Assembly: GCA_040754495.1 (NCBI GenBank)
Contig: JBFMCO010000022.1
Span: forward strand, 1-64,000
Direction of reading: 5' to 3'
From: Candidatus Micrarchaeota archaeon
GTDB taxonomy: Archaea; Micrarchaeota; Micrarchaeia; Anstonellales; Bilamarchaeaceae
Length of the DNA: 64,000 bases
The first letter of the stretch is position 1, and the number at the start of each line of letters is the position of its first letter. Shown here piece after piece: positions 18,607 through 44,439 of the stretch. The position numbers and the translations under genes are program-made. Below the pieces are notes generated by a model, which was not told the origin of the DNA, did no database searches, and saw nothing but the letters and a program-made list of their open reading frames with translations.

Positions 18607-18772
18607 GGGCCCATAGCTCAGCTTGGTAGGGGGGCCGCTCTTATTATAAGAGAGGCCTCGCCGTAAGCGACGGACTCTTATCTTTTGGAAAGGCACTTAC
18701 AGCCCGTTTTGGGCCGCCTTTTCCCAAAAGGCGGAAATCCGTGTGTCGAGGGTTCAAATCCCTCTGGGCCCG
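18607..18772 (+). tRNA. tRNA-Lys(CTT) with two introns (22/23 at 18630-18665; 37/38 at 18681-18736)
   Basis: GGGCCCA/TGGGCCC acceptor, G73, ACGGA-CTCTTA|A-TCCGT arm, GAGGG-TTCAAAT-CCCTC; first intron forms a 3-4-3 BHB. Confidence 0.9.
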
Positions 18773-18886: not shown

Positions 18887-19777
18887 ATGTCACAGCCCCT
18901 GCAGAAGCCCGCGCAAGAGCACCAGCGCCTCCAGACCACTCCCCGCATCCGCAGGCCTCCTTTCGTGATGTGCAGGGACATCGAGCAGGTGAGGGAGGTG
19001 CTGAGGATTTACGGCGCGATGGAGATGCACCTGATGATGTCCGGAATCCTGGAGAACAGGAAGGAGATCGGGAGCCTCATGTATGCTTATGACGAGACTT
19101 CGAGGCAGGCGCTCGCGCGCGCCCCGCCGATGGTGGTGAGGGTCCCGCAGGGCCTTCTGGACCAGCTTGCGATAGCCGGGGGCGCGAGCGGTGCCTACGT
19201 CCCGGGGACCAATATCGTCCTCGTGTCATCGTCGCCGGCCCGTTTCCCGGACGGGACGCCGCAGAGGGTGGAGGACATAATAACCCACGAGACTCTCCAC
19301 TATCTCGACTATCTCCTTCATGCCAATCGCATGGCCTTCAGGAGCCGGGGGCGGCTTGTGAATCCGGAGCCGCCGAGATTCTTCGACGAGGGAGCGACCA
19401 ACTATGCTGCCCTCCAGGTCGTCAGCGGGATGCATCTGCCCGGAAACCGGGAAGCACCTGCCAACTACGCATATCCGACGGCAGTGATGGTGGCAATCGA
19501 GATGCTCGCAGGCATCGAAAGGCTGGCTCCGGCCATGCAGAGCGGCAACTGGGAGCATGTGCAGCAGGCAATCGACCAGAAGCTCGGCCAGGGCAGCTTC
19601 GAGCGGATACTGGATTGCGGCAACGGCGCGGAAGCCATCGGGCTCATACTGGAACTGGATAACGGCCAGCCCCCCTTTATAGACAGGCAGCTTCTCGAGC
19701 GGCATCCGGTCATGAGGAGGGCGAGGCGCGGAATCGAGGCCATGAGGCCGCCGTCCATGGCGGGCCAGGAGATATGA
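18887..19777 (+). CDS. Zincin-like metallopeptidase
   Basis: HETLH plus downstream FDEGATNY third-ligand motif; start MSQPLQKPA. Confidence 0.75.
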   Translation: MSQPLQKPAQEHQRLQTTPRIRRPPFVMCRDIEQVREVLRIYGAMEMHLMMSGILENRKEIGSLMYAYDETSRQALARAPPMVVRVPQGLLDQLAIAGGASGAYVPGTNIVLVSSSPARFPDGTPQRVEDIITHETLHYLDYLLHANRMAFRSRGRLVNPEPPRFFDEGATNYAALQVVSGMHLPGNREAPANYAYPTAVMVAIEMLAGIERLAPAMQSGNWEHVQQAIDQKLGQGSFERILDCGNGAEAIGLILELDNGQPPFIDRQLLERHPVMRRARRGIEAMRPPSMAGQEI

Positions 19778-19848
19778 ATCGACCGGCGGTTCGCTAGCCA
19801 TAAAAAGCGTCTCCTGCATATCCATTCGCCGCTCCGGGTGCGAACTAC

Positions 19849-20178
19849 ATGGCGAAGGAAAAAATCGACTGGTCACAGCCCCCCAACCCGTCACTGCCGT
19901 TTATCAGCCCGGAGAACATAGGCGAGGTCGAGAAGGAGGCGCTGGCGATGGCCAACAAGGCTATTTCTCTCCTTGAGCAGGCGATAGCAGCCTGGGACAA
20001 CGCTAAGGACAAGCCGCCTGAGCTGAAAGGGACGATTCAGAGGTACAGGCGGTTCCACGAGGCGCTGAGCGACTGGGAGAAAAGGATGCTGCAGTCCCTG
20101 GGGAAGGCGGATTTCAATGCCCGGGTGAGGATGCTCGAGGAGTTCGTGAGGATAAGCAGGGCATACGAGGGTAACTGA
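19849..20178 (+). CDS. Small helical-hairpin hypothetical protein
   Basis: 109 aa amphipathic helices; its TGA overlaps the ATG of the giant ORF (TGATG). Confidence 0.7.
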   Translation: MAKEKIDWSQPPNPSLPFISPENIGEVEKEALAMANKAISLLEQAIAAWDNAKDKPPELKGTIQRYRRFHEALSDWEKRMLQSLGKADFNARVRMLEEFVRISRAYEGN

Positions 20179-23100
20179 TGGGCCAGAAACCTGCGGAGAG
20201 GCAGCCCGAGGTGCGGGACGAAGGAGTCAGGGTCGCCCAGCCGCAGGTCCCGATGGTTCCGAGGGAACAGCCGCGCGGCGGCGCGAATGAAGCAGCCGCA
20301 AATGCCGCGACCGGCCTCGGCGTTATGGGCAAGTTCGCCGCGGTTCTCGATTTCATAATAGCAGACCCCAGCAGGGCCGAGGGGAGGCTCGCTGAATTCA
20401 GCCGGCGCCTGGAGCCGTACCGGGCGGATTATCCCGAGGAGACGCGCATCGCCCTCGGCCTTTTCGGCGCCGCGTCACGAATGTACAGGGAAGCGCAGGA
20501 CGCGCGGGCCCATGGAGACACGCAGCGCGCGCAGGAGCTGGAGGATTCCGCGAGGGCCCATTTCAGGGAGGGCATGGCGAAGGCCGGCTCCGTTCCCGGC
20601 ATGGCGCAGGACATACACAGCCTGGCGGGTGCGGGAGCGTCGCCGGAATGGATTGAATCGCGCAAGGCGGCTTTCAACGACGTGGGGCTCGGGACGTGGA
20701 ACAGGGCTATCGCCATCGACCAGGCGGTGGAGTGGCGGGTGAAGAACGACGCGATAATAGATGCCGGAGGCCCGGCTGCGCGGGAAGCAGAGGCCAGGAT
20801 GCGCGATGAGGCAGTGAGGCTGGCCGAGGGCTCGAGGCAGGGCCAGGCCTTCAGCGAGCAGGATTATCAGGACACGATGAGGCGCTTTTCGGAGGCTTCC
20901 GCGCCTGTCACCGCCCTCGCAGCGCACATCCACGGGGCGGCCGCGCTGTTCCACCAGGCCGCGATGAGGCAGGGCGTAAGCGAGCAGTACACGAAGGCGA
21001 TGGAGGACCTGAAGAAGGAATTCGACAAGCTGCTCAAGAAGCTCGAGGAAGGGACCGCGACGAAGGAGGACGTGGAGAAGGCGAAGGAGCTGGCCGATGC
21101 AGTGAAGGCCGCTGAAACCGACCTAGAAGGGCTCTCGGGCGATGATGCAGTTACAGTCAGCGGAATCCATGCCCGCGGGCTCAGCGCCCTCAGGCAGGGG
21201 AAGGGAGAGATGGCGAGGGTGCAGCGCCAGCTCGCAAGGGAATACGCTAAAACGAAGGACCCCGGGATGAGGAAGAAGCTCGAGAGATGGAGCGCTGACC
21301 TCGCCAAGGGAAAGGCGCCGGAGGCCGAGTTGGAGAGGTGGCTGGAAGCGCAGAGGCCGGCGGAGTTCCGTGCGCTGACGACCGAAAACATAAAACGCGA
21401 AACCGCAGAAAGGGCGGGCCTGCTGCGGGAGAAGGGGTACGAGCGCAGCCATCCGCGCGAAACGAAAAGGATAGCTGAGCTGGACCGGGAAGCGGCCAAG
21501 GCGCTCGAAGAAGCGAAGGCATTGAGAAAAAGAGGCGACCTGGACGGCGCGGGGAAGCTCGAGGCGAAAGCGTTCAGGCTGCTTCGGGAGGCGAGGGCGA
21601 AAGTCCTCTGGCTCGAGCGGCTCGACAGGTTCCAGGCAAGGCTGGCCGGCATTAAGGAGCCTCCGGAAATGAAGAAGGCCGCGGAGGAGGTTTCGAAAGC
21701 GCTGGGCGGTGCATTCAATTTCATAGGGACGCAGGACGGGTGGCGGGCGAGGCTGGCATTCATCGCAGCGGACGTGTTCATCCGCTATGGCAAGGTTCTC
21801 CAGAGCAAGCCCGCGGCGCCGCTCCTCAAGGGCATCCTCAGCATCGTGGGCATCCTCTCGGACCCGAGGAAGAAGGTGGACGAGAAGAGGGCGCAGGAGG
21901 AGGTCGGAAGGCTGGAGCCGAAGGCGCTCTCTGCAGAGCTTGGCGGCCTCAAGGGCAAGGTCGATGACAAGGCGCATTCCAAGCTGACGGACGCGGTGAA
22001 GGCGGCATCAGGCTTCATAGGCACGAACCAGCAGTGGAGGGCAGCGTATCTCCTCAGGGGCGTGAAATTCTTCCTTGACAACCGGGAGAAGATTGGCACG
22101 CGGGGGAAGCTCTTCGAGGGCATCATGGGATTCCTCGGCAGGCTCGCCGACCCGAAGGGGGAGATAGGGGAAGAGGAGGCGAAGAGGGAGTTCGCGCGCA
22201 TCACCGGGATACCTGCGGAAGCGCCGGCGCAGGCAGGCGGAAGACGGGAGGCGGCACTTACGGTAGCCGGCCTCAAGCAGGCCGGGGAAGGGTTCGAGAA
22301 GCGCCTCCGCGCCATACCAGGCCACGAGGAGCAGGTGCGCTCCATAACCGAAACAGTGAAGCTCGCCGGGGAGGAGTTCAGGGCTGGCAATGTGAAGAAG
22401 GCGCAGGAGCTCCTCGCGCTCGCGGAGAAGAAGGCCGCCGCCCTGGAAGGCGTAGTGGAGAGGGAAAAGAGGATAGACGCCTCAGGCGCGCCCGAGGAGG
22501 CGAGGGAGAAGCTGAAGAAGGCCGGCCTCGCGGCATTCAACGACTTGGGAAAGCAGAGCGGGGGAAGATTCGACACGGTAGTGAAGGCCACGGACCTGTT
22601 CCTGGGGGGGATGGAGCGGAAACTCTGGCTCCAGCCCGGCGGGGAGACGGCGGCCCTGAAGCTGCTCGATTTCATCGGCAGGCTGGGCGAAGGCGCGCTG
22701 CAGGGGCTGGAATTCGACTCCCAGGCCGCCGAATCCGAGCTGTCTGATATATCGGCGCAGGCCGGGGAACTGTGGAAGGCGATGCTCGGCGCGTCCATCA
22801 CCGAATGGCTCAGGCTGATAGAGGGATGGCGCACGATGGGCGGGCTCGGCACGGCGAACGCGAAATTCCTGGACGACCTGGCAGAAAGCTACAGGGCGCT
22901 GCAGAAGCGGCTCGAGGAGGGCGCGAAGGCTGAGGACATCGAGCAGGAGGCATCGGCCCTCGAGGCGAGGGCGGAGCACGCGAAAAAAATCGGGGAGGAG
23001 CTCGAGGAAAGGGAGCGGGCGGTTGCGGTCTTCAGGGGGGACGTCGAGGACTTCAAGGCTGATACCGCTGCGTTCCGGGCATCCGAGCGGTTCAAAAAAT

Positions 23101-26100
23101 ACGCGGCCGATGCCGAGCCGTACGTGAAAAAGGCCGAGGAGTGGGAGGAGAAAGCGGCGACGTTCATGGCGGAAGCCGAGAAGCTGGAGGGCGACGCCAA
23201 GGCCGAGATGATAAAGAGGGCCGCTGATGCAGTGAAGCGCTCTGAGGAGCTGCTCGGCCACGCAGGGAAGATAATCGGGCTGCGGGAGGCCGGAGCGTCC
23301 GATGAGGTCGTTTCCGCGTACAGGAAGGCGGCGAATTCGTACATCGCAGTCTTCGAGCCGGCGCCGCCGGGGCTTGCAGGCGAGGCGCAGATATTTCCGG
23401 ACGACGTTCTCGCCTACGCGGCAATCGTGTTCTCTGCAGCCGACAGCTACCTGTTCTTCAGGAAGCACGGGAGGGCCGAGGCGGAGAAGCGCGCCGAGAG
23501 GCTGGTTCTGGGCACGACCTTCGCCTCCCGCATCGCGGATGCAGAAGCCGAGCTCAGGGGGCTGGACGGCGAGATGGAGTATGCCGAGGCTATTGACAGC
23601 GACACTGCGGCAAGGAAGCAGAAGCTCATGGATTCCGCGACCGAACTCCGTGGCGACAAGAGGAAAGTCCCCAAGCCCCGCGAAGGCAGCGCGGAGTGGT
23701 ACGGGCAGATGGCCCTCGATGCCTTGGAGCGGGGGGACTTCGCGGTTGCCGACCTGGCGGTGTATCGCGGCATGTTCGAGAAAGTGGCGCCTGGGGGCGG
23801 CAGGAACTACGTCCCGGAAGACATTGAGCGGGACATAAGCGCGGTGCTCAGGGGAGAGAAGGTGCCGGCCGCCGGGGAACTGGACAGATACCTGACGCTC
23901 ATAGATTCTGCTTCGCTGACCGCGCAAGCTGACCTGCTGAAAAGGGACAACCCGGTTTCCGGCTCCGCGGAGGAGAGGGAGAGGAAGCAGAGGGTGCACA
24001 AGCTCGCTGAAGAAATAAAGAGGAGGGCGGACGCGCACGATTTCGCGGGAGCGGAAAGGCTCCTTGAGATGGCGACGGTCTATACCGGCCTCGCAAGGGA
24101 CAAGAAGTGGAAGGCGTTTGCCGGCGCGGACAGGATGGAGGCGGCCCTCGATGCCGAGCTTGCGGGCGGCGACCATTCCGGAGAGTTCCAGGCAGCGGTC
24201 GTGTACCAGAAGGCGAGCGAGGAGACGGCCTCGTTCCGCGCCTCGCTCGCGGATTGGGGAGCAGGGCTTGCAGAAAACAAAAAGCTCGTGGAGAGGGGCC
24301 TCCTGCGCGTGGAGCAGCTTGTCTCCGAAGGAAAGACCGAGGAGGCGGGCGCGCTCTTTGGTCAGCTCATGCTCTATGCCGGCGCGGTGAGGACCTTTGC
24401 CGCCCCGAAGAAAAGGGATGTGATACCCGGATTCGACCCGGCATATGACAGCTCGAAGCTCGGAGGAATGGGCCTCGCGCTCGACGCGCTGATAAAGGGA
24501 GAGGCGGAGGTCGGCGGGAAGAAGCCGGAGGAGGTGTTCTCGCAGAGCTTCTTGGAGACGCAGAGGGAGTATCTCAACAAGAGGGCGGACGCGTATCTCA
24601 GGCTTTCAGAGAAAATGCCTGTCGGCGCGGAAACGGTCGGGCAGGGGCTTGCCGAGGTACGGAGAAGGGCTGCGGAAGGGGACTTCGAGGGGGCACTGCG
24701 CCTGCTTGAGATGGCCGGCAACTACTACGGCGAGGCAGCCCCCGGCAAGCAGGCCGGGTGGAGATACAGGGATGCGACAAGGAAAGGGCCGGGCTACGAG
24801 AGGGGCAGGCAGGACATGCTGAACGCCATAAGCATGGAGATTGCGGCCAAGGACCCGGCGGACCATGACGAAGCTCTGGAGACGTTCAACAGCGGCAGTC
24901 AGAGAATATCTGTTGCAAAGGCCGCCATCGAGCGCTACGAAATCGTGGAGCGTAATATCTACAACGCCCTTCCGACAGCGGTGATAGACGAATGGGACCA
25001 CCACGGCACGATTGCGCTGCGGGGGGAACCTACACCCGAAAACGAGGAAGGGCCGGTGCTGGGCCGCGTAAGCATGGAAAAGATACGCAGGTACGAGAGC
25101 GAGCACCCCGATGATACGGCTCTCGGGGGAGGTCTGAGTCTCAAGACACTCCTTACGAAAATGAAAAAAGCGGCCGAAGAAGGGGACGACGAGGCATTCA
25201 GGAAATACGAGAAGGCGTTCTTCTCAAGGCTATACCTGGTCGCTGGACGCATCTTGAGGCGGGAGCAGCTCGAGGAGAACAGGCAGGAGGTAAAAAAGTA
25301 CATAGAGGTCCTCGAAGGCTTCACGGCGGCCATTACAATCGACCAGCTTGTGCCTTACGGATGGCTGGAAGGGGACGATGAAAGGCTGAAGAAGGTCACG
25401 GCTCTTGAAAAACAGCTTAAAAATAACGAGATAAGCAAGGCGGAGTTCGAGAGCAAGCTGAACGTGATTCTTTCCGAGCGCCTGCAGATGATAGAGCAGA
25501 ACAAGTTCACGGACAAGGTCCCGGGGCCCATGAGGGAAACGGTCCGGCAGCTGGCGCCGAGGGCGAAGGCGTTGCTAGAGAGAGCCCGGGGCCTTTATGG
25601 CAAGCTCGAAAAGATGGACAACAACAGCAGTGAATTCCCGCTCGAGGAATACAAGCAGGTCGTAAAGGACTTGAGCGCGCTGACGGAGGAGTACCAGACA
25701 CAGAGGAAGATTTCGGTCGCCTATTCACATATCGACCAGCAGCTCCAGATGAATAAGAGCTACCATGAGGCCATCGCCGGAGAGGGCGCGTTAGCCTCGG
25801 ATTACCCAGACGCTTATGGGAGGGCGGTCAAGTTCCTCGGCTTCTCGAACGGACATTTCAAAAAAGCCCAGGAGCTTCTCCTTAAAGGAGAGTTCAAACA
25901 GGCAGGCGCGGAGTTCGAGCGCGGTATAAACCGCCGCGAGTGGGCGCTGATGGAGGCCGACCCGAACGTGCTCTTCGGCCAGGCGAATACCTACCTTGGA
26001 AACCTCCCGATAAGCATGCTGACAGGAGTGCCCATCATCCCGGAATCCACGACAGCGATGGACGAGGTCAGCATGATCAAGCACAGGCCGGGCTGGGGCG

Positions 26101-38100: not shown

Positions 38101-40703
38101 CGGTTTATCGGGGAGCGCAGGACCCTGCCAACGCGGCGGATGTCGCGCGCAGGGTGGATGAGCGGATGGGCTGGGAGAACGCCGGCCACATGAGGGCGCT
38201 TGAGCGGAGGTATCCGGACCTCGGCACCCTGCCTCCGCACATGCAGGAGTACAGGGAGCCCCTCGAGCGTGCGCGCAGGCGCATAGCGGGCGGCGAGAAG
38301 CCCGATGACGTTTACCTTGACGAGTCGAAGAGGATGCTGAGGGCTAATCCCCGGGAGAGGGCGAAGGCCGAGGACATAATCACGAGGCACGGGAGGGGCG
38401 TGGCAGACGCCGAGGTGTCCGCGGTCCTGGAGTTCCAGAAGAGAAACGGCATCGCGTCTTTCGAAGATGCGGCGTATGCATTCGTGAGACAGCAGGCCGC
38501 GCCGAAACCTCCAGCGGAACCGCTGCAGCCATCCGAAGCCATTTACCGGAAGCATGAAGCGAATATTTTCGGCCCTGCCCGGGGGCAGCTTGGCAGCGAG
38601 CTCCTTGCCAGCCTGAGGGGCGCTGAGGAGAGGATAGCCGGCATGGTGCCTGAGGGGCCGGAGAGGGAGCGCGCGCTCAAAAGATGGGGCGAGTTTGCAG
38701 ACCGGGCGCTCTCGCGCATCGCCGATCTCCCGGCACCCGAGCGCGCGGACGCGCTGGCGCGCTTCATGATAGCGGGCGACTATCTCCTCACAAGGGCGGC
38801 TGAGAACCCGGCGCGCACGAAGGCATGGCTCGATTTCATCGCCGACAACCCGAACGCCGTCGAATACGCCATGCTCGCCAAACGAGGTCTCGACATAAGG
38901 GCGCAGGACATAGTCGTGGCCGAAATCCGCCCCAGCATCCATGACATGTCTGACAGGAAAGCGCTGAAGAAGGCCCTCGGGAAGAGGGTATCGTTCATGG
39001 AGGACGTGATACGCGAGATACCGGAAAGGTGGTTCATGGAGGCGGGGGTGAGGCGCGATTATATGATGGACCTTGCAGGTTCCGACCCGCTCAGGGCGGC
39101 GGCCGAGCTCGACCGCGTCACGATGCCGCACGGAATCAGTGTTGTGAGGAAGGCAACGGGCGTGTACCTCGCAGAGGTCTCGCACACGTTCTCGCTGCAT
39201 GGCCAGCCGGACATCCGGGGCCTCGTAATAACCGGCGCTTACGGGACGGGCGACATGTTCGACGGCATGACCGCGTATTTCAATCCCCTCAGCGGCAGGA
39301 TTTTCATGCGCGGGACTGCCCATTTCGCGGAGGCCGGCATACCGGAATCCGCGCTTCCGGGCATGAAGATGACGTACGTGCATGAGATGCAGCACCTGCT
39401 CGACAACGCCGGCGGGTATGTCGCGGCACTCTCGGCCAGGTCTGCAGGGCGCGGAATGGCCTTCATGCCGGAATACCGCGCCAGGCTCGAGACCACGGCG
39501 GTCGCGAGAGAGGTCCTGGAGATGGTTCCCCGGCTGGGGGGCCGCGGGACCGAGGATGCCATCAACGCAGCCATCAGGAAGGACCCGGAGGAATACAAGC
39601 AGGCTTACAGGAAGGCGCTGGACGCCATGCGCACAGGCGAGGACGGAAGGCCCGACCCGGACTGGGCGGGCAGGCCGCCCGAGGTTCTGCAGAACCGGCT
39701 GAGGAAGCTTATAGACGACGAATACCGGAGCCTTATGCCGCTGAGCTATACCGAGCTCTACGGGCCGACAACCGCAGGGATCGTCCGCGGGGAGATCACG
39801 GTCAGGAAGCCGGCCGCCCCCGAGGCCGTTCCCTTCAAGCCCGCCGTAGCCGCGGACTCGGCTCCGGGACGCGGGGAGCCGGACCTGCTGCGCTCTGCCA
39901 AGTATGAAAATGGAATCCTGACGATAGAGGCGGATTACCTGGGAGGCGAGCTTGCACATGCGGTGAAGCCGCAATTCGCCGAATCCGCGGTGAATGGCGA
40001 GTTCATCCCTTCCGGCGACAGGACAAAGCCGAGCGGCCTGTGGCTCTCGTGGGGCTCCGGCTGGGATTACTTCACAGGGAGCAACCCCGGCCTGATGTTC
40101 AAAGGCACCGTGAAGTTCAGGGCCGAGATGAGGTCCGGATTGAAGCTCTTCCTGCTTGACGGGCGCGAATCTTTCGATAGCATGATGGCCGAATTCCGGC
40201 GGGAAGTTAAGGTCGCCGAGACAACGGGGAGCGGGTATCCGGATGGCACCTGGCCTGATAACAACTGGGTGTACTACGAGAAGAGCCCATGGCAGTGGCT
40301 TAGGGAAAGGGGCTATGACGGCGTGGCCGTGACGGAGGAGGGATATCTGGATACCAATTTCCAGTTCGGCTGGGACGCGGCCTCCATAGTCATTTTCGAG
40401 CCTGCGGGCAATGTGCGCCTGCCTGGAGGCGAAGCCAGGCTGGAGGAGTACAGGAAGGGTGCCCAGGGCAGCGCGGACGCCATGCTGCCCCTTATTGAAG
40501 AGGCAGGCCTGCCGTTATTCGGCCCGAATAAGGCGTATGACCTCATAGAGGCGTACGCCGGCGGCAGGGCTGAGCGCAGCCCGGGAAAGCGCATCGATGC
40601 CGAGGATGAGGCTTTCCTTAAAAAGCTCCTGGACGAGAAACCGGGCCTTGAAGAGGCTGCGAAAAGGATTATCGAATACGTTAGAAAGAGGGAAGGGGGA
40701 TAG
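20178..40703 (+). CDS. Giant 6,841-aa multidomain effector-like protein
   Basis: Uninterrupted 20.5-kb ORF with recognisable kinase (DRHAGN, DRHTGN, GRGSSADVY/VAVK), HEMQH, GNAT-like and ART-like motifs and a TM block. Confidence 0.93.
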   Translation: MGQKPAERQPEVRDEGVRVAQPQVPMVPREQPRGGANEAAANAATGLGVMGKFAAVLDFIIADPSRAEGRLAEFSRRLEPYRADYPEETRIALGLFGAASRMYREAQDARAHGDTQRAQELEDSARAHFREGMAKAGSVPGMAQDIHSLAGAGASPEWIESRKAAFNDVGLGTWNRAIAIDQAVEWRVKNDAIIDAGGPAAREAEARMRDEAVRLAEGSRQGQAFSEQDYQDTMRRFSEASAPVTALAAHIHGAAALFHQAAMRQGVSEQYTKAMEDLKKEFDKLLKKLEEGTATKEDVEKAKELADAVKAAETDLEGLSGDDAVTVSGIHARGLSALRQGKGEMARVQRQLAREYAKTKDPGMRKKLERWSADLAKGKAPEAELERWLEAQRPAEFRALTTENIKRETAERAGLLREKGYERSHPRETKRIAELDREAAKALEEAKALRKRGDLDGAGKLEAKAFRLLREARAKVLWLERLDRFQARLAGIKEPPEMKKAAEEVSKALGGAFNFIGTQDGWRARLAFIAADVFIRYGKVLQSKPAAPLLKGILSIVGILSDPRKKVDEKRAQEEVGRLEPKALSAELGGLKGKVDDKAHSKLTDAVKAASGFIGTNQQWRAAYLLRGVKFFLDNREKIGTRGKLFEGIMGFLGRLADPKGEIGEEEAKREFARITGIPAEAPAQAGGRREAALTVAGLKQAGEGFEKRLRAIPGHEEQVRSITETVKLAGEEFRAGNVKKAQELLALAEKKAAALEGVVEREKRIDASGAPEEAREKLKKAGLAAFNDLGKQSGGRFDTVVKATDLFLGGMERKLWLQPGGETAALKLLDFIGRLGEGALQGLEFDSQAAESELSDISAQAGELWKAMLGASITEWLRLIEGWRTMGGLGTANAKFLDDLAESYRALQKRLEEGAKAEDIEQEASALEARAEHAKKIGEELEERERAVAVFRGDVEDFKADTAAFRASERFKKYAADAEPYVKKAEEWEEKAATFMAEAEKLEGDAKAEMIKRAADAVKRSEELLGHAGKIIGLREAGASDEVVSAYRKAANSYIAVFEPAPPGLAGEAQIFPDDVLAYAAIVFSAADSYLFFRKHGRAEAEKRAERLVLGTTFASRIADAEAELRGLDGEMEYAEAIDSDTAARKQKLMDSATELRGDKRKVPKPREGSAEWYGQMALDALERGDFAVADLAVYRGMFEKVAPGGGRNYVPEDIERDISAVLRGEKVPAAGELDRYLTLIDSASLTAQADLLKRDNPVSGSAEERERKQRVHKLAEEIKRRADAHDFAGAERLLEMATVYTGLARDKKWKAFAGADRMEAALDAELAGGDHSGEFQAAVVYQKASEETASFRASLADWGAGLAENKKLVERGLLRVEQLVSEGKTEEAGALFGQLMLYAGAVRTFAAPKKRDVIPGFDPAYDSSKLGGMGLALDALIKGEAEVGGKKPEEVFSQSFLETQREYLNKRADAYLRLSEKMPVGAETVGQGLAEVRRRAAEGDFEGALRLLEMAGNYYGEAAPGKQAGWRYRDATRKGPGYERGRQDMLNAISMEIAAKDPADHDEALETFNSGSQRISVAKAAIERYEIVERNIYNALPTAVIDEWDHHGTIALRGEPTPENEEGPVLGRVSMEKIRRYESEHPDDTALGGGLSLKTLLTKMKKAAEEGDDEAFRKYEKAFFSRLYLVAGRILRREQLEENRQEVKKYIEVLEGFTAAITIDQLVPYGWLEGDDERLKKVTALEKQLKNNEISKAEFESKLNVILSERLQMIEQNKFTDKVPGPMRETVRQLAPRAKALLERARGLYGKLEKMDNNSSEFPLEEYKQVVKDLSALTEEYQTQRKISVAYSHIDQQLQMNKSYHEAIAGEGALASDYPDAYGRAVKFLGFSNGHFKKAQELLLKGEFKQAGAEFERGINRREWALMEADPNVLFGQANTYLGNLPISMLTGVPIIPESTTAMDEVSMIKHRPGWGVLKLAARGRGEDPYKYTYGWAKQQMENDQDVNLGNPARPDYVKDPQQSWAYYNYSPITEYGADFMGYEELGGRLWNSVLEGDGRKVQRYQKQMLVMEASVFYIPVDTFIDGINSKITYKDWQKRIHFQAMYNGDLAYDELFGDWGLMDARTGAKIAEGVGMFALSIATMGLGSVGFVVGGGKMLWDAIDGIQKDLAKYGEVTTMSWVNLGLTVVGLGASAAAGRLVKASQTAIEAAKLGDAAKFTTQVARAGRFATAARVVAYTDITVNVIGMVPQFYYGIKLMAEGKYAEGTQQLAFGAFSAFMAYHGGVQQLRGMRGLKTEIAKMGALREAHAKAPEVFASLSTPEGMFSFLQRVRARDPVSLVIYDNLPKPQRILFDGMLADRNVVSALKKNDIGLARGAFDSGLETFKQLSDLGGTRALTDAAHLGTQAGLEPFMRDLLIPESATGPQRTRRDAAYARLGEMKKRPETAEAAATIETLLKDKDVQKGNETGVLKIGWAADEIRSQQMQTINRYTDSVVSGEQARLGLYSSEGEAARANAKRIGDSYLAYARARSEGKPFDWDYHAKRMGMGPEDAKKLFAKLDAVPDARTVAGVISREGVRQAVRNRVALDGRAILGDTPLTELAGEGALFSRWGELTPEDLFGMALNRRERAAEELEGAGRETDGRLAAAKRERATALSREADALDAEVKRRQAPEEVLTPDSLRSGAKEKFGRAQRLRSEGRDEEAFALESEARRSIALAADLEKFGEYGIVRATPDGQFIHRDFPDRRFTRAELDDAAILVRAIRKRGVPTDKRLLAIYDALPKEVKKDYRGGEDALMKSVLDVIYSRRGQAAEAAAPVLRSEELPVPSDPALAAVAGMTVPGTNLRWGVIPPDQVLQWQAKVYEAYKAAYGKIGLIYDSPEAMFAKNPEVLVATDGEGRIVAFTILKKTAFGTKLSLVGAVPDIPEGRAAARAMIQGFPALEGAYITAPGAPAHLAIKAGVPVVPYDSARIIQGEVPAEAGSPGAYQNGEGKWVRQEAQRGDGPEGMAAISRMPGFADSELVKHAIAQDGVKPGAKPEELTWNDLVEQAVKMGELPDRPEVRQNAFAVPMVINGKPEIVVKVMFGKPPADALEVRSVLQSRGIGGQVAADAINLYKIFNGEQVPLEVASRYMDVTLHDQYTRIKQEKIASGMPETKADAEALVEVAKSMAPRAGEGGLEAGGPISQEGVELLRMAEGKLDLVEGLTGADVAKATLDWSQPRLEMLRILTVEGSPYRERFLAADPAERAVIADAIARGATPERAFLKAAEGMVPADGRKLLEVGERLKGLPEAERNLRLRDLESLNPALGRMLKRLADPATPETVKQEIAAEWDSAVAGAERHKRVNEARAARDAAQLAEQELALLKGTPDEQAAGRVPAWIESAAKARGKDPAALHEALVKAYGEGGTEGRLRVLNELGALGGMPEGVRSTFVQNSPEFFELIVRGGLEGRVAAMPGFEGGIIVNAEKLEGLRGAYKIDVEMPDGSKRSLFVKAEDLVPAQLGSELAGGHGLLPPVIHAADGQGMPFTYDTGIRYTDPVSGQETAHMQEFGIMEDVHDYATARHSDVIMLPDGRSAQVTVESVAVVSREVFADPARMQAILADEHHPAHKVVKAFWELAKTEEGRQRIFQAWRAYHELSRRAMLLDRFDRNTVAVLVTTPEGESVLTFQPIDMDYVAGKIGSDGDLRFFNDDFASASVDFATKIAGAAGVPAETVLGEMAKAYGSDSVFPREAADERAAAAASVRATLNKYDGKPFGAGYDVEDYGKTIGKDYVEYGGRDRIVGRRDGRAILHAGDITPLGERIGGAEAEADFSRFNREKFERMAKPLEEAAPPPAVEAQPPAGEKTPPGKRGAGNVTPPARPGAMRGAPAGGPRTVPGKRGAGGGEPVAAPGGRRKVAIGGGEVELEPAPERAPELAAMKISEDELSQLGVSYQGLYQDGAGRRLNVFETEAGGERRLVAIPADLSGKAMLDAIGAEVRALGRPTELPPELRGMPPDVSSQVGMDGAPKARLLSSEPLGRGSSADVYLAEMVIDGRPTRVAVKIYKNPEGNGTWQERAEYFADEVRKAKILGDAGLGPKVFGIADAGGNMAFAMEVIEGKPMYIDEMAPGLRAKYINEDTFAQVRKMYDELIAHGYEIGDFDFMILTEGPNAGRVVFLDAGALREVPRGAQGEPRPRYGDGAKRAEGGRLQAEAMTAMEYFTKMDRDELAAVAEVSKGLLGQGHVDSDTMRLLAVRWGSREGRARAIGEYITSIAGADEQKAKATFDALKRIEAETGIRLLPDGARFEDLAARAGEGEISEAEIIAPMSGDDYHAALAGMRTQAARESVALHFSGRGEIPDAATFENAAILADEAAGAKVPEQGQAELSVYYDGNGRIIGIADNERLFYGDPKAINDKTPEAKVRVDLESGRIVSMDERGMKNPLLADLVGLRILPGKGAEGAGPGGRGPPPLPPMKVLDEGSIVSAYASGTGQAQRTRAARSFVMLDGEGQGRVISELRSQGRHEEARHLTELQAIGGEAGAGIERVYGIPRDEIITIYAREPTAQGARKALAERLGIVILPFEWEHYPADRRQWVSVPYRDFRSFEDDHFLFGLITSGNMIDTVSQMYPGGRIASIEYHNGAIGAYEVAIRTQNGETRTVFVKRQDLRPDAAGSDYSVRSGVPAPEVITSAGGRELTYVGPDGEVSRYGIITNMRDFGGMMRFGGVEAQVRATDETALWDLDRSPLAGSLMSQDPQVRAKFWEELGYMLAGSYATGIWDRHAGNARAMVLEVQNADAHTNPADQSSPTVGEALSQKGYWVWQQDGKTYMFMIGGIDTDTAANYLAGEAHGSFDMTGMNIRYGYVDLHSLFNRLATIRGTSVDALVMEAFGDVSGGQVPGPVAMGMKRWWRDFGSDPHYADEMAGRFSSHEGESIGFGYPRTEQELDVIRQGGVLHQENPQNGDPYTIIAFADGRSRMRPEYEIVHREDIEALDPRIAAMFPPGRDMYAVEITGEVRKAVPDIDKRTNRIRTSDGRMVAIIDSADPLAKTLLDGGIPMVKARRDMPRQGEVAVDDATGIIRAAPGFGKLTGIQAYQAGPVPVFRAMMGAGEGFMLGQFAHIGHYILAKETSVREAAQVPAGVVAGEIEAPGIERMPAPAQVEGVRGGMRDLVGAVRSGDEGRIRAAEAEYDKRLGVLARLRPDTELRVVENETLFADLAPGGQAQAKVLAADYLRNRSAGKKLDGDLLVIDYLVSHGMNAVDAAAAVVNLGGAGKAPAPVTLPPYVAEHFGTRQPDPVTAENALILAGDRNTLGRLGIPDGLGRVLKSEGMAVVSEGKRMTEVRGYYDLESGRIIYLGRTDAPREVTAGGVEFVLRFDHESGRVSIPESEDVPLPDSIARLNGMRIAPPPQAVPFGVFGIFMPLFKYFRKPPAAAPQPEAVPIKVPRSRNDIQGRAEGIRGLPPDQQAQELAGLHDAVAAEHGDVYARNYRDMMEELVKHPEHSGRILDEWEAVRAEEKHYEALERARRYAFSAAEGFGIVRGQDRKLISGGEYAADMARSRGEKPKAFRKRLLEAYDAGFRRGGVLDARLGVANSLGVLDNIVVESRPGVLDEKRTMQARKEFIRKNPEFFDLIMRGGLEEVISANLGAGDVRIAGVSHAGGMARGAYGVEVLLPDGRRKRVFVKLEDLGPAAFGADLARVEGMIAPKVFTADSQGRPLSYDVSYKDPIGKRMVSGQRRFGIMLDVRDTVGQKARVRTADGRFREITVTSVALVGDDIFNARSLDGIPQPSRAAAEDFWTAMGSEGGREEMFRTWYAYQEMSRRATLSDRHTGNSMYVIGVTSDGETVRTFQPIDPDDIGAKVEARPEGMNFSEFNDFSALYTSNFVNGLYLASDNAASLGLLKSPINRAQASRAASSDAAMSGWRLPEDPGWVRSAAEFIIMDYDGKPFGLGTDMTIGGHGSYIKYHAGRRRAAGYDGRVRMYSDEMLAVYRGAQDPANAADVARRVDERMGWENAGHMRALERRYPDLGTLPPHMQEYREPLERARRRIAGGEKPDDVYLDESKRMLRANPRERAKAEDIITRHGRGVADAEVSAVLEFQKRNGIASFEDAAYAFVRQQAAPKPPAEPLQPSEAIYRKHEANIFGPARGQLGSELLASLRGAEERIAGMVPEGPERERALKRWGEFADRALSRIADLPAPERADALARFMIAGDYLLTRAAENPARTKAWLDFIADNPNAVEYAMLAKRGLDIRAQDIVVAEIRPSIHDMSDRKALKKALGKRVSFMEDVIREIPERWFMEAGVRRDYMMDLAGSDPLRAAAELDRVTMPHGISVVRKATGVYLAEVSHTFSLHGQPDIRGLVITGAYGTGDMFDGMTAYFNPLSGRIFMRGTAHFAEAGIPESALPGMKMTYVHEMQHLLDNAGGYVAALSARSAGRGMAFMPEYRARLETTAVAREVLEMVPRLGGRGTEDAINAAIRKDPEEYKQAYRKALDAMRTGEDGRPDPDWAGRPPEVLQNRLRKLIDDEYRSLMPLSYTELYGPTTAGIVRGEITVRKPAAPEAVPFKPAVAADSAPGRGEPDLLRSAKYENGILTIEADYLGGELAHAVKPQFAESAVNGEFIPSGDRTKPSGLWLSWGSGWDYFTGSNPGLMFKGTVKFRAEMRSGLKLFLLDGRESFDSMMAEFRREVKVAETTGSGYPDGTWPDNNWVYYEKSPWQWLRERGYDGVAVTEEGYLDTNFQFGWDAASIVIFEPAGNVRLPGGEARLEEYRKGAQGSADAMLPLIEEAGLPLFGPNKAYDLIEAYAGGRAERSPGKRIDAEDEAFLKKLLDEKPGLEEAAKRIIEYVRKREGG

Positions 40704-40721
40704 CTGCCGCTGGAAGGGGAC

Positions 40722-41264
40722 TCAGGGCACGGCCTGCCCGTTTATCACGAAGCTGAATTTCTGCCTCTCCTTCTCAAGCGCCTTCACGGTTTCCAGAGAG
40801 TCCTTCAGCATGCGCAGGAAAGGCTCCCAGGAGCCGCTGCCGGAATGGATGCTGCGGATGGCCTCGGAAACGACGACCTTCCTTTTCTTGTCCACGAAAG
40901 TGCAGTAGATGCTGCTTCCCCGGCGCCTGACATCGATGCCGTATTCCGCGAAATCCTCCTCCGGCGGAAGTGTGGCGCCGAGCGCGAGCGCGGATGCGAC
41001 GGATTCTATCCCCTTCCTCGGCTCGGACGAATAGGACTGGACGCCGACGCCGTCCTTGAGATAAAGGCTGTCCGGAATCCTGAGGAGCGGCTCCAGCTCC
41101 CGGGGCATCCCGCCGGCGATTTCCGCGAGGGTGTCCATGAGGCGCTCTTTAGTTGCGCGGTCCCGCAGGAGCGGATCTGCCAGCATCTTCTGGAACCTTT
41201 TTTCGCCTATGTCCGTTACGGTTGCTCCGGCCGTTTTCTTTTTTCTCTTTCCTGCCATCGTCAC
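40722..41264 (-). CDS. Hypothetical protein, paralog family A
   Basis: LLRIPDSLY...YGIDVRRRGSSIYCTFVDKKRKVVV...GSW shared with 42365-42895. Confidence 0.75.
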   Translation of the reverse strand: MTMAGKRKKKTAGATVTDIGEKRFQKMLADPLLRDRATKERLMDTLAEIAGGMPRELEPLLRIPDSLYLKDGVGVQSYSSEPRKGIESVASALALGATLPPEEDFAEYGIDVRRRGSSIYCTFVDKKRKVVVSEAIRSIHSGSGSWEPFLRMLKDSLETVKALEKERQKFSFVINGQAVP

Positions 41265-41809
41265 ACCAGGTACATGTCGCCGCAGTCGCTGACCGCTACT
41301 CTCCCCGGCTTCGCCTTCGCGGCTGCCTCGGCGGCCCTTATCGCGCCAGCGACTTCCGCCCAGTCCTTTTTTTGCGGCTTGTCCATATAGCGCATGAGCG
41401 GCTCCCTCACCATTATCCTCCGGCCCATGTCCGCGAGCACGAGATAGACTGTGCTTGTCGTCTCATAGACGGCGATGCCGTATCCCATGTCGGGCTTCCG
41501 GTCCATATGGCCGGATGAAAGGAAACGCGCCAGGACAGCGTTTATCCCGAACCCGGCGTCATCCGAAAGCGTGATTGCATTACCGGCCTCGCGCCGGTAA
41601 AGGCGCGCGGGGAGCGCAAGCGCCGCCTTGACATCCTCGCTCCAGTTCTGCGCGTATCCTGCAAGGCCCGAAGCGGCGTCCTCCCGCGACACGGAGGCAG
41701 GTGGCGCAGCTTCTGCAAGATGGCCTTCAGTGGCGCCGGCCTTCGCGATGAACGGCTTTTCCGGCGGAGGCAGGGGCACTGGACCGCGGGCATCCCTTTT
41801 CTTTGGCAT
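41261..41809 (-). CDS. Hypothetical protein, paralog family A
   Basis: LALPARLY...YGIAVYE..STVYLVLADMGRRIMV; 4-nt overlap with the next gene. Confidence 0.7.
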   Translation of the reverse strand: MPKKRDARGPVPLPPPEKPFIAKAGATEGHLAEAAPPASVSREDAASGLAGYAQNWSEDVKAALALPARLYRREAGNAITLSDDAGFGINAVLARFLSSGHMDRKPDMGYGIAVYETTSTVYLVLADMGRRIMVREPLMRYMDKPQKKDWAEVAGAIRAAEAAAKAKPGRVAVSDCGDMYLV

Positions 41810-41841
41810 GAGTAAAACTTGCGATGAACCGTTTAAAATGG

Positions 41842-42339
41842 CTAGGTCGCCTCGATGAGCCGCCAGTAGGTGTTGTTGTCGAGGATGTTCCTCGCCTTCG
41901 CGAGGTCGGCCGGGGGAATCTGCGCCCCCGTATCCAGCGCCTTCTTCACCGAGCGCAGGAATGCGAGGTCGGCCCGGGCGGCGGTTATGCAGCCCTGGAC
42001 GATGCGTTCTATCTTGCCCTTGGCTTCCTCCCGCGACGCCTCCCCGCTTTCCAAGGATACCTCGATTTTTGACGGGTCTGCCAGGCTCCTGAAAACCACG
42101 CCGGAGCCGCCAAGCTCGTCTTTCTTCCCTCCGGCCATGCCCCGGACGAAGCTCTCGACGCCCCTCCGGAGGACGCCTGCCCCGTTCTCCAGGTCCCGCT
42201 CGAGGTATTCGATTTTGCCATCAATCCCGCGGGCAAGGCCGGCCATCTCCAGGCCCTCGCCTTTTTCCGGGGCGGCGCCTCTTGACGGGAATTTTCCTGA
42301 ATCGCGCTTTTTCGGGAAGGGAATCACCTTTCTCTCCAT
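41842..42339 (-). CDS. Hypothetical coiled-coil protein
   Basis: 165-aa helical ORF within the same-strand cluster. Confidence 0.6.
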   Translation of the reverse strand: MERKVIPFPKKRDSGKFPSRGAAPEKGEGLEMAGLARGIDGKIEYLERDLENGAGVLRRGVESFVRGMAGGKKDELGGSGVVFRSLADPSKIEVSLESGEASREEAKGKIERIVQGCITAARADLAFLRSVKKALDTGAQIPPADLAKARNILDNNTYWRLIEAT

Positions 42340-42364
42340 GGGGGGTTATTGGCGAATCGGGATT

Positions 42365-42895
42365 TTAAATTGAGCTAACCGAGCCTTCTTTCACAATCAC
42401 GAACTCGAAGCGCCTGCCGCTGCGCCTGTAGGACTCGGCGAGCCTGAGCGCCTGGGAGAGGCTGTCCAGGAATCCGGTCCAGGAACCGGTGCTGACGTAC
42501 ATGTTCTTTATGTCGTCGAACACGACTACGCCCCGCTTCCGGTCCACCAGCGTGCAGAAGGTGTTGTCGCCCCGCGAGCTGATGTGTATGCCATAATCCG
42601 GAAGGCCGGGCGGGAACCCTGAGCCCAGCATGAGCGCCCCTGCGGCTTTCGCCGCGCCTTTCTCGGCATCAGATGAGAAGGACGATTCGCCGGTGCGGTA
42701 AAGCCTGGCAGGGATTCCAAGAAGGTGGGCCTGCTCGTCGCTCATCGGGACGATTCTCCGCAGCTGTCCGATGCACTCTTCCCGCGTTACTGAATTGGCG
42801 TCGGTCATATTGCGCCTCCTCCTCCACTCCGCAAGGTCCGTCATCCCCGACTCGCGCTCCGGCGCGCCGGAGGAGCGGCCCTTCCCGCCAAGCAT
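42365..42895 (-). CDS. Hypothetical protein, paralog family A
   Basis: LLGIPARLY...YGIHISSRGDNTFCTLVDRKRGVVV...GSW; alternative start 42844. Confidence 0.75.
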   Translation of the reverse strand: MLGGKGRSSGAPERESGMTDLAEWRRRRNMTDANSVTREECIGQLRRIVPMSDEQAHLLGIPARLYRTGESSFSSDAEKGAAKAAGALMLGSGFPPGLPDYGIHISSRGDNTFCTLVDRKRGVVVFDDIKNMYVSTGSWTGFLDSLSQALRLAESYRRSGRRFEFVIVKEGSVSSI

Positions 42896-42935
42896 GCCAT
42901 CTAACTCTTGCGAAGATATTTTAATGGGGCACGGA

Positions 42936-43460
42936 CTAGCGGCCCGTCCTGATTCTGTCCGCGAAGCGCTCCATGGAGCAGGATGGGTTCCCGGGGTCGC
43001 GGACCGCCATCTCCAGCTCCTTGAGCCGCAATCCGTCGGGATGGGCGCGGTCTATGAAGCGCGCGATAATTTTTCCGCCCTCTTCATGGAGCGAGAGATA
43101 CCAGTATTTCACCCACTGCGAGATGTCGCCGAGAGTCTCGCCTTCCATGCGCGGCCTCTGCCTCGACGACTTGGTGTCGCAGAGCTCGAGGCCGCCCTCG
43201 AAGCGGGAGAGCCGGACCTTCGGCGGGAACGCGAGCGCCACGTAGATGTCGAAGCCCGGCTCTGCGCCGAGCGTCCTGCAAAGCTCGGCGATGGCTTGCC
43301 GGGCCTCCACGGTCTTCCGCATGGGTATCGGCCAGCCGGGGCTCGCCTTCCCGGCACGGTCGCCTTCCGGTTTCATGGCATCCAGCTCCCGCCTGGGGGG
43401 CCGGCCTGGCTTTTCCGGCGTGTCCGTTTCGCGGGGCGGGCCGGTGATCCTTTTGACCAT
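42936..43460 (-). CDS. Hypothetical protein, possible distant family A member
   Basis: LAFPPKV and WYLSLHEEGGKIIARFIDR weakly echo the family pattern. Confidence 0.55.
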   Translation of the reverse strand: MVKRITGPPRETDTPEKPGRPPRRELDAMKPEGDRAGKASPGWPIPMRKTVEARQAIAELCRTLGAEPGFDIYVALAFPPKVRLSRFEGGLELCDTKSSRQRPRMEGETLGDISQWVKYWYLSLHEEGGKIIARFIDRAHPDGLRLKELEMAVRDPGNPSCSMERFADRIRTGR

Positions 43461-43515
43461 AGGATATTACTTATGGTTATCAACATTTTTAAACAGAATT
43501 AATGACATATTGTGC

Positions 43516-44439
43516 ATGATGCTCGCAGGACCCAGGGCCAGGCTTGCGCAGAGGGCTGCAAGGTTCTCTTCGTACGCGGTGCTTGCCGGCAGCCTGATGG
43601 GCGGATGCCATGACAAAGGCGGTGCCGCCCCTGCCGAAGACGGGGGCGCCGAACTTCCGTTCTACCGGCTTCCGAGGGAGAGGGACGCGTCAGCGCCGGA
43701 TTCCGCAGGGGCAATGCCGCCGGCGGCTGCTCCGCCTGGCACGCAGAGCGCCATACGAGGCCCCCCGCCGCAACGCTCAAGCCTCGGCTGCCAGGACGGG
43801 ATGGCGAATGCGGGCAGGTACTGCATAGACGCTTACGAAGTCCACCTCGTGGACGGAACGGGCTCGCCCCGTCCCTATTACACGCGCCCGCCGGAGGACA
43901 TGCGGGGGCTTAGGGCGGCGACTGCTCCGGGCGTGTTCCCGCAGGGCTACCTGAACCAGCTCCAGGCGCGCACGGCGTGCCGGAATGCGGGCAAGAGGCT
44001 CTGCACGCTCGAGGAGTGGCAGGGCGCGTGCAGGGGAAGCGGAGGCATGAGGTATCCATATGGCATGTCGTTCGAGGAAGGGAGATGCAATACGCTGAAG
44101 TCGCCGCACATACTCGACAAAATCTTCCCGGACATACCGCACCTCCGGCGCATGGGCAGGGAGTTCAACGACCCGAGGCTCCTGCAGGAGCCGGGCTACC
44201 TGGCGAGGGGCGGCGAATACAGCGGCTGCGCCACGGAGAGCGGGATTCACGACATGGCCGGAAACCTCTCGGAATGGGTGGATGATTCCGTGGAGCGGGA
44301 CGGCATGCTGTATGGGACTTTCGCGGGCGGACCTTTCAGCGGGCCGGTGAAAGGCGGGTGCGGGCACTGGACGAGCGTGCATGCGGCGAAATACTCGGAT
44401 TACTCGATAGGGACAAGGTGCTGCGCGGACGGGCGGTAG
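43516..44439 (+). CDS. SUMF1/FGE-sulfatase (C-type-lectin-fold) domain lipoprotein-like protein
   Basis: CIDAYE, CRNAGKRLCTLEEWQGAC, GIHDMAGNLSEW, SIGTRCC; LMGGC lipobox-like. Confidence 0.85.
   Translation: MMLAGPRARLAQRAARFSSYAVLAGSLMGGCHDKGGAAPAEDGGAELPFYRLPRERDASAPDSAGAMPPAAAPPGTQSAIRGPPPQRSSLGCQDGMANAGRYCIDAYEVHLVDGTGSPRPYYTRPPEDMRGLRAATAPGVFPQGYLNQLQARTACRNAGKRLCTLEEWQGACRGSGGMRYPYGMSFEEGRCNTLKSPHILDKIFPDIPHLRRMGREFNDPRLLQEPGYLARGGEYSGCATESGIHDMAGNLSEWVDDSVERDGMLYGTFAGGPFSGPVKGGCGHWTSVHAAKYSDYSIGTRCCADGR

Follow-up and report, generated by a model that had tools for sequence, protein, structure and literature searches.

This study revealed that a 64,000-nucleotide stretch of a Candidatus Micrarchaeota genome (contig C22, positions 1-64000, referred to here as the window) carries a gene for a giant protein of 6,841 amino acids (aa), which is preceded by the gene of a small helical partner protein and faced by convergent small genes. 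The assembly comprises 1.63 Mb in 72 contigs and is about 80% complete. We see a roughly even chance that this locus represents a copy of a multi-kinase effector cassette that has three parts and is specific to one Micrarchaeota family. The strongest new evidence is a covariation between the types of kinase-like module in the giant and the subtypes of the small genes, which shows a specific one-to-one, presumably functional, tie between a module and a small protein. The cassette looks like an undescribed effector-plus-antidote system, and literature searches yielded no description of these protein families, which are almost entirely confined to that one Micrarchaeota family.

In the proposed mechanism, the helical partner of ~100 aa would bind residues 26-63 of the giant and serve as a chaperone or targeting adaptor. 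The giant, in which an extended N-terminal region is followed by a hydrophobic, Gly-rich block and serial enzyme modules, would be exported or transferred from cell to cell as a multi-kinase effector whose targets would be archaeal cells, host or rival. The separately transcribed small soluble proteins would be cognate binders, subtype T1 for kinase modules of type A and subtype T2 for those of type B. They would most likely be kinase inhibitors that protect the producer (immunity), and perhaps also recipient neighbouring cells. Partner binding (from a model only), export, toxicity and neutralisation are what we infer.

Hereafter, "cargo" refers to the product of the gene directly after a partner gene, and "array gene" (arr) to a convergent small gene. 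The layout agrees with an initial annotation of this DNA: three co-oriented genes (open reading frames (ORFs) 18887-19777, 19849-20178 and 20178-40703, all on the plus strand), the last two coupled by TGATG, face a convergent cluster of five minus-strand genes (40722-43460). The TGA of the partner gene overlaps the ATG of the giant (...CTGATGGGC...), and a gap of 18 bp separates the giant's TAG, which ends at 40703, from the stop of the first minus-strand gene, which begins at 40722. The cassette measures ~24 kb overall, the block of partner, giant and array about 23.6 kb. The organism is, as that annotation had supposed, a DPANN archaeon: its PolD large subunit marks it as archaeal, and Micrarchaeota MAGs (metagenome-assembled genomes) are its nearest named relatives. 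The features are as follows.

18693..18772, plus strand: tRNA-Gly(CCC), intron-containing (ARAGORN); marks a variable spot where gene content differs among relatives
18887..19777, plus strand: gluzincin-like protein, 296 aa, HETLH ... DEGATNY; resident neighbour outside the cassette
19849..20178, plus strand: partner, 109 aa, helical, motifs WDxxKxKPxxL and HxxLxxWE; coupled to the giant by TGATG
20178..40703, plus strand: giant cargo protein, 6,841 aa, 0 Cys (ORF; homologs in Micrarchaeota metagenome-assembled genomes (MAGs))
20253..20366, plus strand: giant aa 26-63, N-terminal amphipathic/hydrophobic helix, predicted partner-binding site (complex-model interface, hydropathy)
26565..27032, plus strand: giant aa 2130-2285, block of four moderately hydrophobic helices rich in Gly, a candidate for membrane insertion (hydropathy, homologous blocks)
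28575..29462, plus strand: giant aa 2800-3095, conserved domain, fold unmatched (module in P0061 and P0020)
30060..31748, plus strand: kinase-like module A-1, giant aa 3295-3857, loop DRFDRN (kinA hidden Markov model (HMM), 701 bits; alignment A2)
32055..33077, plus strand: RIO/Bud32-like small kinase module, giant aa 3960-4300, VAVK ... GDFDF ... LDAG (alignment A6 motifs)
33627..35531, plus strand: kinase-like module B, giant aa 4484-5118, FVKRQDLRPD ... DRHAGN ... IDTD (AlphaFold2 (AF2), Foldseek, the exhaustive structural scan VIA, motifs)
36618..38177, plus strand: kinase-like module A-2, giant aa 5481-6000, FVKLEDL ... DRHTGN ... IDPDD (kinA HMM, 590 bits; alignment A2)
38598..39872, plus strand: HExxH domain, giant aa 6141-6565, HEMQHLLD ... 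LETTA (alignment A7; common to other giants)
39873..40703, plus strand: giant C-terminal ~275 aa, specific to this giant (no homolog among 80 relatives)
40722..41264, minus strand: arr1, small soluble protein, subtype T1 (arrT1 HMM, 238 bits; alignment A3)
41261..41809, minus strand: arr2, subtype T2 (arrT2 HMM, 263 bits)
41842..42339, minus strand: arr3, small protein unrelated to the A3 family (homolog beside the G342 giant)
42365..42895, minus strand: arr4, subtype T1, alpha/beta model (AF2 pLDDT 87.6)
42936..43460, minus strand: arr5, small protein unrelated to the A3 family (homologs in other giant loci)

Kinase-like modules and the small genes that match them

The giant was found to carry two type-A kinase modules and one of type B, together with a RIO-like module and an HExxH domain. 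On the opposite strand, arr1, arr2 and arr4 form one family, which divides into the subtypes T1 and T2. A total of 23 loci from 16 genomes, this one included, were scanned with the T1, T2, kinA and kinB HMMs, of which the T1 and T2 models were built only from this genome's copies. Cargos with kinB only face T2 only (11 complete loci), those with kinA only face T1 only (four loci), and those with both face T1 and T2 (six loci). T1 is present in 11 of the 12 loci with kinA and in none of the 11 without it (Fisher p about 1e-5), and T2 in all 18 loci with kinB and in none of the five without it (Fisher p about 3e-5); both p values are overstated because the compared genomes are kin. The presence/absence pairing thus holds in 22 of the 23 loci, the exception being a kinA cargo in genome G169, which has no classed array gene nearby.

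Copy numbers of kinase modules and small genes match in most loci as well. The window has two A modules and one B module against two T1 genes (arr1, arr4) and one T2 gene (arr2), and in G144 and G050, too, a pair of A modules is accompanied by a pair of T1 genes, one of those in G050 lying on the far side of the cargo. Extra copies are found in G244, which has an additional T2 gene upstream, and at the first giant on contig C42 of this genome, which has an additional weak T1-like domain. A stand-alone type-A kinase protein of 799 aa on contig C7 has its own T1 gene. A specific tie between the convergent small genes and the enzyme modules of the giant is supported by this agreement in type and number across the 23 loci. 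Array genes also occur away from kinases: on contig C65 (824-6183, L022), three of them (T1; then T2, T1) flank a partner gene and a non-kinase cargo of 585 aa, an arrangement reminiscent of orphan immunity genes.

The cluster had been described as a paralog array, which holds for arr1, arr2 and arr4 but not for arr3 and arr5, which belong to other families. In G342, the 8,609-aa giant is directly followed by a homolog of arr3, and homologs of arr5 were located in the array of G358 and close to the giant of G244. The confident AF2 model of arr4, taken for the A3 family, comprises a basic disordered N-terminal tail and a compact alpha/beta domain. It has no fold match (Foldseek E > 0.1, VIA best Z 4.2, Atlas TM <= 0.41); a word-based homolog search with arr4 returned only two near-identical proteins, and the small proteins have no Pfam or NCBIfam match.

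Two further patterns were weighed and set aside. Arr3 was tried as the cognate of the RIO-like module, which is present in the G157 giants, but no arr3 homolog was found there; and a mirror-image order of array genes and modules is seen in 6 of 7 two-type loci, which are too few for a claim. Directly after the first C42 giant, an ORF (C42:21889-23343, L020) joins an N-terminal part resembling xylose isomerase/AP endonuclease to a weak T1-like C-terminal domain, and may represent two genes or a fusion.

With regard to the kinase modules, the AF2 model of module B (pLDDT 90, predicted TM-score 0.87) makes a two-lobed protein-kinase-like (PKL) fold a secure prediction. The top 50 rows of the Foldseek search were all PI3K/PIKK, with weak E values of 5e-3 to 4e-2. 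In VIA, the best match was Vps34 (Z 10.8, root-mean-square deviation 5.0, 244 residues aligned), followed by Bud32 (10.3), LicM2 (10.1), PI3KC2a (10.0), actin-fragmin kinase (9.9) and PI4KIIIb (9.8); PI3K-alpha is also among the best matches, which range from Z 9.8 to 10.8. Given that Bud32 and LicM2 tie with the PI3Ks, only the general PKL fold is certain.

The modules of both types share the Lys of FVK-x-x-DL, a D-R-(H)-x-x-N loop and I-D-x-D. The invariant residues are K169, D285, H287, N290 and D342 in the alignment of type B, and K196, D349, R350, N354 and D375 in that of type A, in which the His is variable. In the giant, the catalytic loops read DRHAGN in B, DRHTGN in A-2 and DRFDRN in A-1. 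A PI3K/PI4K flavour may be read from the DRHxxN and Lys motifs, on which it rests. Like the PI3K/PI4K/PIKK kinases, the giant combines a PKL fold with a DRHxxN loop, a metal-binding Asp and a Lys within FVK-x-x-DLR-x-D, which recalls FK-x-G-DDLRQD. Unlike them, its kinase modules have no match to PF00454 at E <= 1, so that the threshold of this superfamily model is not reached, and no PDB match by sequence or profile, and Bud32, actin-fragmin kinase and the kinase domain of a lanthipeptide synthetase score just as well (Z about 10). PI3K/PI4K-like kinases are otherwise a hallmark of eukaryotes, although PI-kinase-like folds occur in bacterial effectors such as LepB and MavQ of Legionella and OpiA of Francisella. 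We know of no archaeal example of the giant's type of kinase module. The module B profile retrieved only 78 proteins among 1.84 billion representatives. In the phylum sample it was found in 21 of 76 genomes of one family and 15 of 28 of the genus, with one weak match (E 8e-4) outside that family.

The putative RIO/Bud32-like module is recognised from the invariants of alignment A6, its motifs and sub-threshold matches: the best PDB profile match is Rio1 (E 0.11), and a weak match to the PADLOC kinase PD-T4-6 (E 9e-4) is the only one from the Pfam, NCBIfam and PADLOC scans of the giant and the small proteins. The HExxH domain is also present in five other giants; in alignment A7 its H, E, Q, H and D are invariant, as is a downstream E, and it has no PDB or Pfam match. 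Searched as profiles against the PDB, five module alignments gave nothing significant.

The partner protein and its cargos

The genome encodes 10 paralogs of the partner, each directly before a cargo gene. The cargos range from 366 to 6,841 aa and comprise three giants, two zincin-like proteins of ~400 aa, others of 366-585 aa and two larger ones (1,573 aa and >1,746 aa); many have a MGGQxxERR-like start. Homologs of the partner lie directly upstream of both C42 giants and of all eight giants in five relatives, and an array gene lies convergently downstream of the same giants. The family was detected in 27 of 28 genomes of the genus, 38 of 76 of the family and 1 of 325 outside the family.

A complex of the partner with residues 1-330 of the giant was predicted with an ipSAE of 0.84, the best control giving 0.00; the mark of the complex model was reached by 58 of 80 solved pairs and by 2 of 110 mismatched pairs. 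In the model, the partner (pLDDT at least 84) wraps residues 26-63 of the giant, and at least 69% of the contacts are common between runs. The model supports binding of the partner to the N-terminal helix of the giant. Conserved synteny, translational coupling and the predicted complex all agree with the initial annotation, in which the helical protein was a dedicated partner.

Tandem arrangements of a partner with a zincin-like cargo of ~400 aa were observed on contig C55 (16098-19017, L027) and in G244 (C20:2900-7500), with two and three pairs, respectively; the same adaptor therefore serves a second class of cargo. In G157 (C2:147604-165612; L035, L036), only 4 nt separate the end of the partner ORF from a giant of 5,882 aa in the same frame. 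Read one way, the two form a single open frame of 6,003 aa, and read the other, a stop separates them; this may be a natural near-fusion.

The giant as a proposed exported effector, and rival explanations

The giant itself had no match in Pfam or NCBIfam when searched in halves and in ten pieces (Pfam at E <= 1), nor in PDB sequences when searched in halves. Accordingly, there was no sign of Ig, RHS, beta-helix or adhesin repeats, as the initial annotation had stated. That annotation also described the protein as helical and enzyme-rich. The enzyme-rich part stands, one kinase module being recognised by fold and the others by conserved motifs; as for the helicity of the N-terminal third, the structural modelling covered its residues 1-330, within the complex. 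Proteins of 4,855-7,300 aa from Micrarchaeota MAGs share the central modules at 31-54% identity. Two further complete giants of 6,147 and 6,652 aa are encoded on contig C42 of the same genome, together with contig-truncated pieces, and the three complete giants account for 3.6% of the assembly. The order and number of modules are shuffled among giants, and kinase modules are also present in cargos of 655-3,600 aa.

The giant contains no Cys, against about 87 expected from the genome ORF mean of 1.27%, and its sister giants in this genome contain one and three. The Gly-rich block (aa 2130-2285) has homologs in the C49 and P0025 cargos, and other giants carry such a block at much the same position. 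The domain at aa 2800-3095 recurs as a module with 57% identity in P0061 and 31% in P0020 and has no PDB profile match, and the C-terminal ~275 aa have no Pfam match. By eye, three repeats of ~100 aa can be seen at aa 505-830 (about 21690-22670), with the pattern G-F-I-G-T ... W-R-A ... L-x-G-I-x-x-x-x-G; they were not detected in a BLAST self-comparison. The giant can thus be described as a modular multi-enzyme protein, whose Gly-rich hydrophobic block and extreme Cys avoidance would fit an exported or translocated protein.

The effector cassette reading was preferred because of the Cys avoidance, the hydrophobic block, the shuffling of modules, the multi-copy state, the patchy distribution, the insertion at a variable site and the module-matched small genes, some of which stand alone. 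Two traits of polymorphic toxins are seen: variable enzyme modules on a common scaffold, and adjacent module-specific small genes, by genomic pairing. Several observations weigh against this reading, besides the kinship of the compared genomes and the G169 exception. The giant has no classical signal peptide, as was noted initially; 43 hydrophilic residues precede a single amphipathic, moderately hydrophobic helix (aa 44-62, by hydropathy). Nor does the 64-kb window contain secretion genes, its remaining genes being housekeeping ones, in line with the initial annotation. A contractile sheath was looked for in the about 80%-complete genome but not found, nor did any FtsK/EssC-like ATPase exceed the cut-off (FtsK_SpoIIIE falling below it); the only ATPases of this kind found were generic HerA/VirB4-like AAA_10 proteins. 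No Pfam model recognises any part of the cassette. In module A-1, Phe replaces the catalytic-loop His. Finally, the convergent orientation of the small genes differs from that of most bacterial toxin-immunity pairs, and their suggested immunity role follows from genomic logic only, since the small proteins have no known fold.

Given the missing signal peptide and secretion machinery, a serious rival is an intracellular regulatory mega-kinase, that is, a cytoplasmic signalling scaffold whose small proteins are substrates or regulators and whose partner is a folding chaperone. The specific pairing suits kinase-substrate or kinase-regulator relations as well as it suits immunity. We nevertheless consider this explanation rather unlikely: the near-total Cys avoidance is specific to cargos, the system is patchy even within the genus (kinase module in 15 of 28 genomes) and occurs in multiple copies with domain shuffling and insertion at a variable site, array genes exist without a kinase neighbour, and 3.6% of a reduced genome would be unusual for housekeeping regulation.

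The effector cassette can be compared with several known systems. In Firmicutes, the LXG polymorphic toxins of the type VIIb secretion system are accompanied by small helical, WXG100-like helpers (Lap1/Lap2) and by immunity genes. The present locus is alike in its variable enzyme modules with adjacent cognate small genes and in the upstream gene of a ~100-aa helical protein, which, according to the complex model, would bind the helical N-terminus of a large, modular, toxin-like protein. It is unlike them in that it comes from an archaeon, neither the partner nor the giant's N-terminus has an LXG or WXG100 Pfam match, EssC-type FtsK/SpoIIIE stays below the cut-off, the cargos carry several enzyme modules in as many as 8,600 aa, and the small genes face the cargo gene instead of running in its direction. 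In type VI secretion, Eag (DUF1795) chaperones shield the N-terminal hydrophobic helix of an effector before export, and immunity proteins are specific to the toxin domain. The likeness here lies in the proposed logic of chaperone, effector and domain-specific immunity; no relation in sequence or fold was seen, and none was searched for. Unlike in type VI systems, no contractile sheath gene was found.

MARTX and the large clostridial toxins are multi-effector proteins with a hydrophobic translocation region. The giant resembles them in architecture only, with its huge polypeptide, long non-enzymatic N-terminal part, hydrophobic block, several enzyme modules and Cys avoidance, whereas no homology and no repeats of their type were detected; an autoprocessing cysteine protease is impossible in a giant with no Cys. 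In the operons of pore-forming colicins, the immunity gene lies downstream of the toxin on the opposite strand, is independently transcribed and encodes a membrane protein. The small genes of the window likewise lie downstream of the giant on the opposite strand, but they encode soluble proteins, alpha/beta in fold and with a basic tail at the N-terminus.

A related case in DPANN archaea is that of the SPEARE giants of Nanohaloarchaeota, which are about 9,000 aa long, vary between strains and have a proposed role in host interaction (PMC10266531). Their sequences include a VirB4/TraG-like ATPase and Ig/fibronectin-like domains besides a Sec signal peptide, and another ATPase gene lies downstream (PMC10266531). 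Both are giant proteins of DPANN archaea; however, the SPEARE domains and Sec signal were not detected in this giant, and SPEARE giants have not been reported to come with a partner, kinase modules or matched small genes (PMC10266531). This case is relevant to a further rival, in which the giant is a structural protein of the surface or of a contact bridge, anchored by its hydrophobic helices and not delivered. Such a role would suit the size, the Cys avoidance, the hydrophobic block and the DPANN lifestyle, and the nanohaloarchaeal giants have been proposed as host-interaction devices (PMC10266531). We regard it as distinctly unlikely, since the giant has no detected Sec signal, Ig/fibronectin or VirB4/TraG-like domain, about half of it consists of enzyme-like modules with conserved catalytic residues, and module-matched small soluble proteins are not expected for a fibre.

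A more far-reaching version of the effector cassette would be an undescribed mode of delivery, in which a three-helix adaptor recognises an N-terminal helix and Cys-free cargos, from zincin-like proteins to proteins of 8,600 aa, are passed into host or rival archaea; PI3K/PI4K-like kinases would rewire or poison the recipient, and each module would have an inhibitor of new fold. We put this forward tentatively, at somewhat less than an even chance. To our knowledge, no effector system is known for Micrarchaeota, and the cassette bears on the question of how hosts are exploited or manipulated by DPANN archaea. It offers a putative adaptor whose binding site is predicted, kinase modules that carry catalytic motifs and small proteins whose subtype predicts the kinase to be bound, and the one-to-one matching rule turns a giant protein of unassigned function into pairwise testable predictions. 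Should the kinases target lipids or proteins in other archaea, the cassette would represent the first effector and immunity system between archaea that is based on kinases, and it would also place PI3K/PI4K-like enzymes outside eukaryotes and bacterial pathogens.

The tRNA-Gly site and neighbouring genes

In the relatives, the order is ProRS, MBL, tRNA-Gly, no or one gene, and PurN, spanning 1.8-3.4 kb, whereas the same interval measures 27.6 kb in the window. The stretch after tRNA-Gly varies by relative and holds a zincin, an FGE-like gene or nothing. In G157 (contig C6), an ortholog of the zincin (39-40% identity) lies between tRNA-Gly and PurN, with no giant there. Since relatives keep the tRNA-Gly site, and also the zincin ortholog, without the giant, the cassette is an insertion beside a resident zincin.

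The initial annotation had counted the zincin as the system's processing protease, which would make a four-part device. The gene is co-oriented with the partner gene at a distance of 71 bp, and a zincin-like fold is plausible: the label is based on the HExxH...E motif (HETLH ... DEGATNY) and on ESM-Atlas look-alikes, which are Peptidase MA-like clusters (feature score 0.95, Atlas model pLDDT 0.63), and the structure gives TM 0.43-0.59 to Peptidase_MA_2 and DUF1570 clusters, with no Pfam match. This explanation is nevertheless highly improbable and the claim was abandoned, given the ortholog without a giant in G157, the lack of zincin homologs beside the eight giants in five relatives or the two C42 giants, the other zincin paralogs, which are cargos with their own partner gene, and a putative TATA-like box before the partner gene. 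Thus, of the neighbours that the initial annotation had grouped with the giant, the partner and the convergent small genes co-occur with it elsewhere in this genome and in the five relatives, and the zincin does not. The zincin is outside the unit, and the conserved parts are three, not four.

The insertion beside a tRNA gene also raises the possibility that the giant is a polyvalent protein of a mobile element and the cassette a remnant or cargo of an element integrated at tRNA-Gly. The giant has an HExxH domain, as do many polyvalent proteins, and an Atlas feature lead (0.88) connects aa 6100-6841, a region that spans this domain too, to ART-PolyVal/LPD23; it is a lead only and was unconfirmed by Pfam, which found no PolyVal or LPD domain (PHROGs were not searched). 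No integrase, capsid, conjugation or replication genes were found nearby in the window, no att-like direct repeats longer than 14 nt surround the insertion, and other copies of the cassette sit among housekeeping genes such as ybaK and rtcA. We therefore consider this origin very unlikely.

The remainder of the window comprises housekeeping genes, including aminoacyl-tRNA synthetases, PolD, PurN, GT2 and transporters. Among sequencing runs, small-share matches were found in DNA runs of one groundwater study, and no RNA run was listed. Directly 5' of the intron-containing tRNA-Gly(CCC) lies a free-standing ORF with a LAGLIDADG domain (17894-18547, plus strand). On the other side of the cassette, the longest ORF of an FGE-sulfatase-like gene (43246-44439, plus strand) overlaps arr5 by about 215 bp. 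Its likely start is ATG 43517, which gives a lipoprotein-like N-terminus (LMGGC) and places the gene divergent from arr5, with an AT-rich spacer of 56 bp. Further downstream, a 394-aa ORF (45441-46625, minus strand) with a HEVAH motif and no Pfam match represents a second, unrelated HExxH protein outside the cassette, conserved at 33-46% identity in four relatives, where it adjoins PurN. Pairwise comparison of this ORF with the zincin and the giant showed no similarity among the three HExxH regions beyond the motif. A partial tRNA match in Rfam (61216-61273, minus strand; model positions 10-63, 30 bits), which was not called by ARAGORN, may be an intron-containing or split tRNA. Finally, the gene of the PolD large subunit, DP2 (50010-54890, minus strand), is split by an intein with a LAGLIDADG domain.

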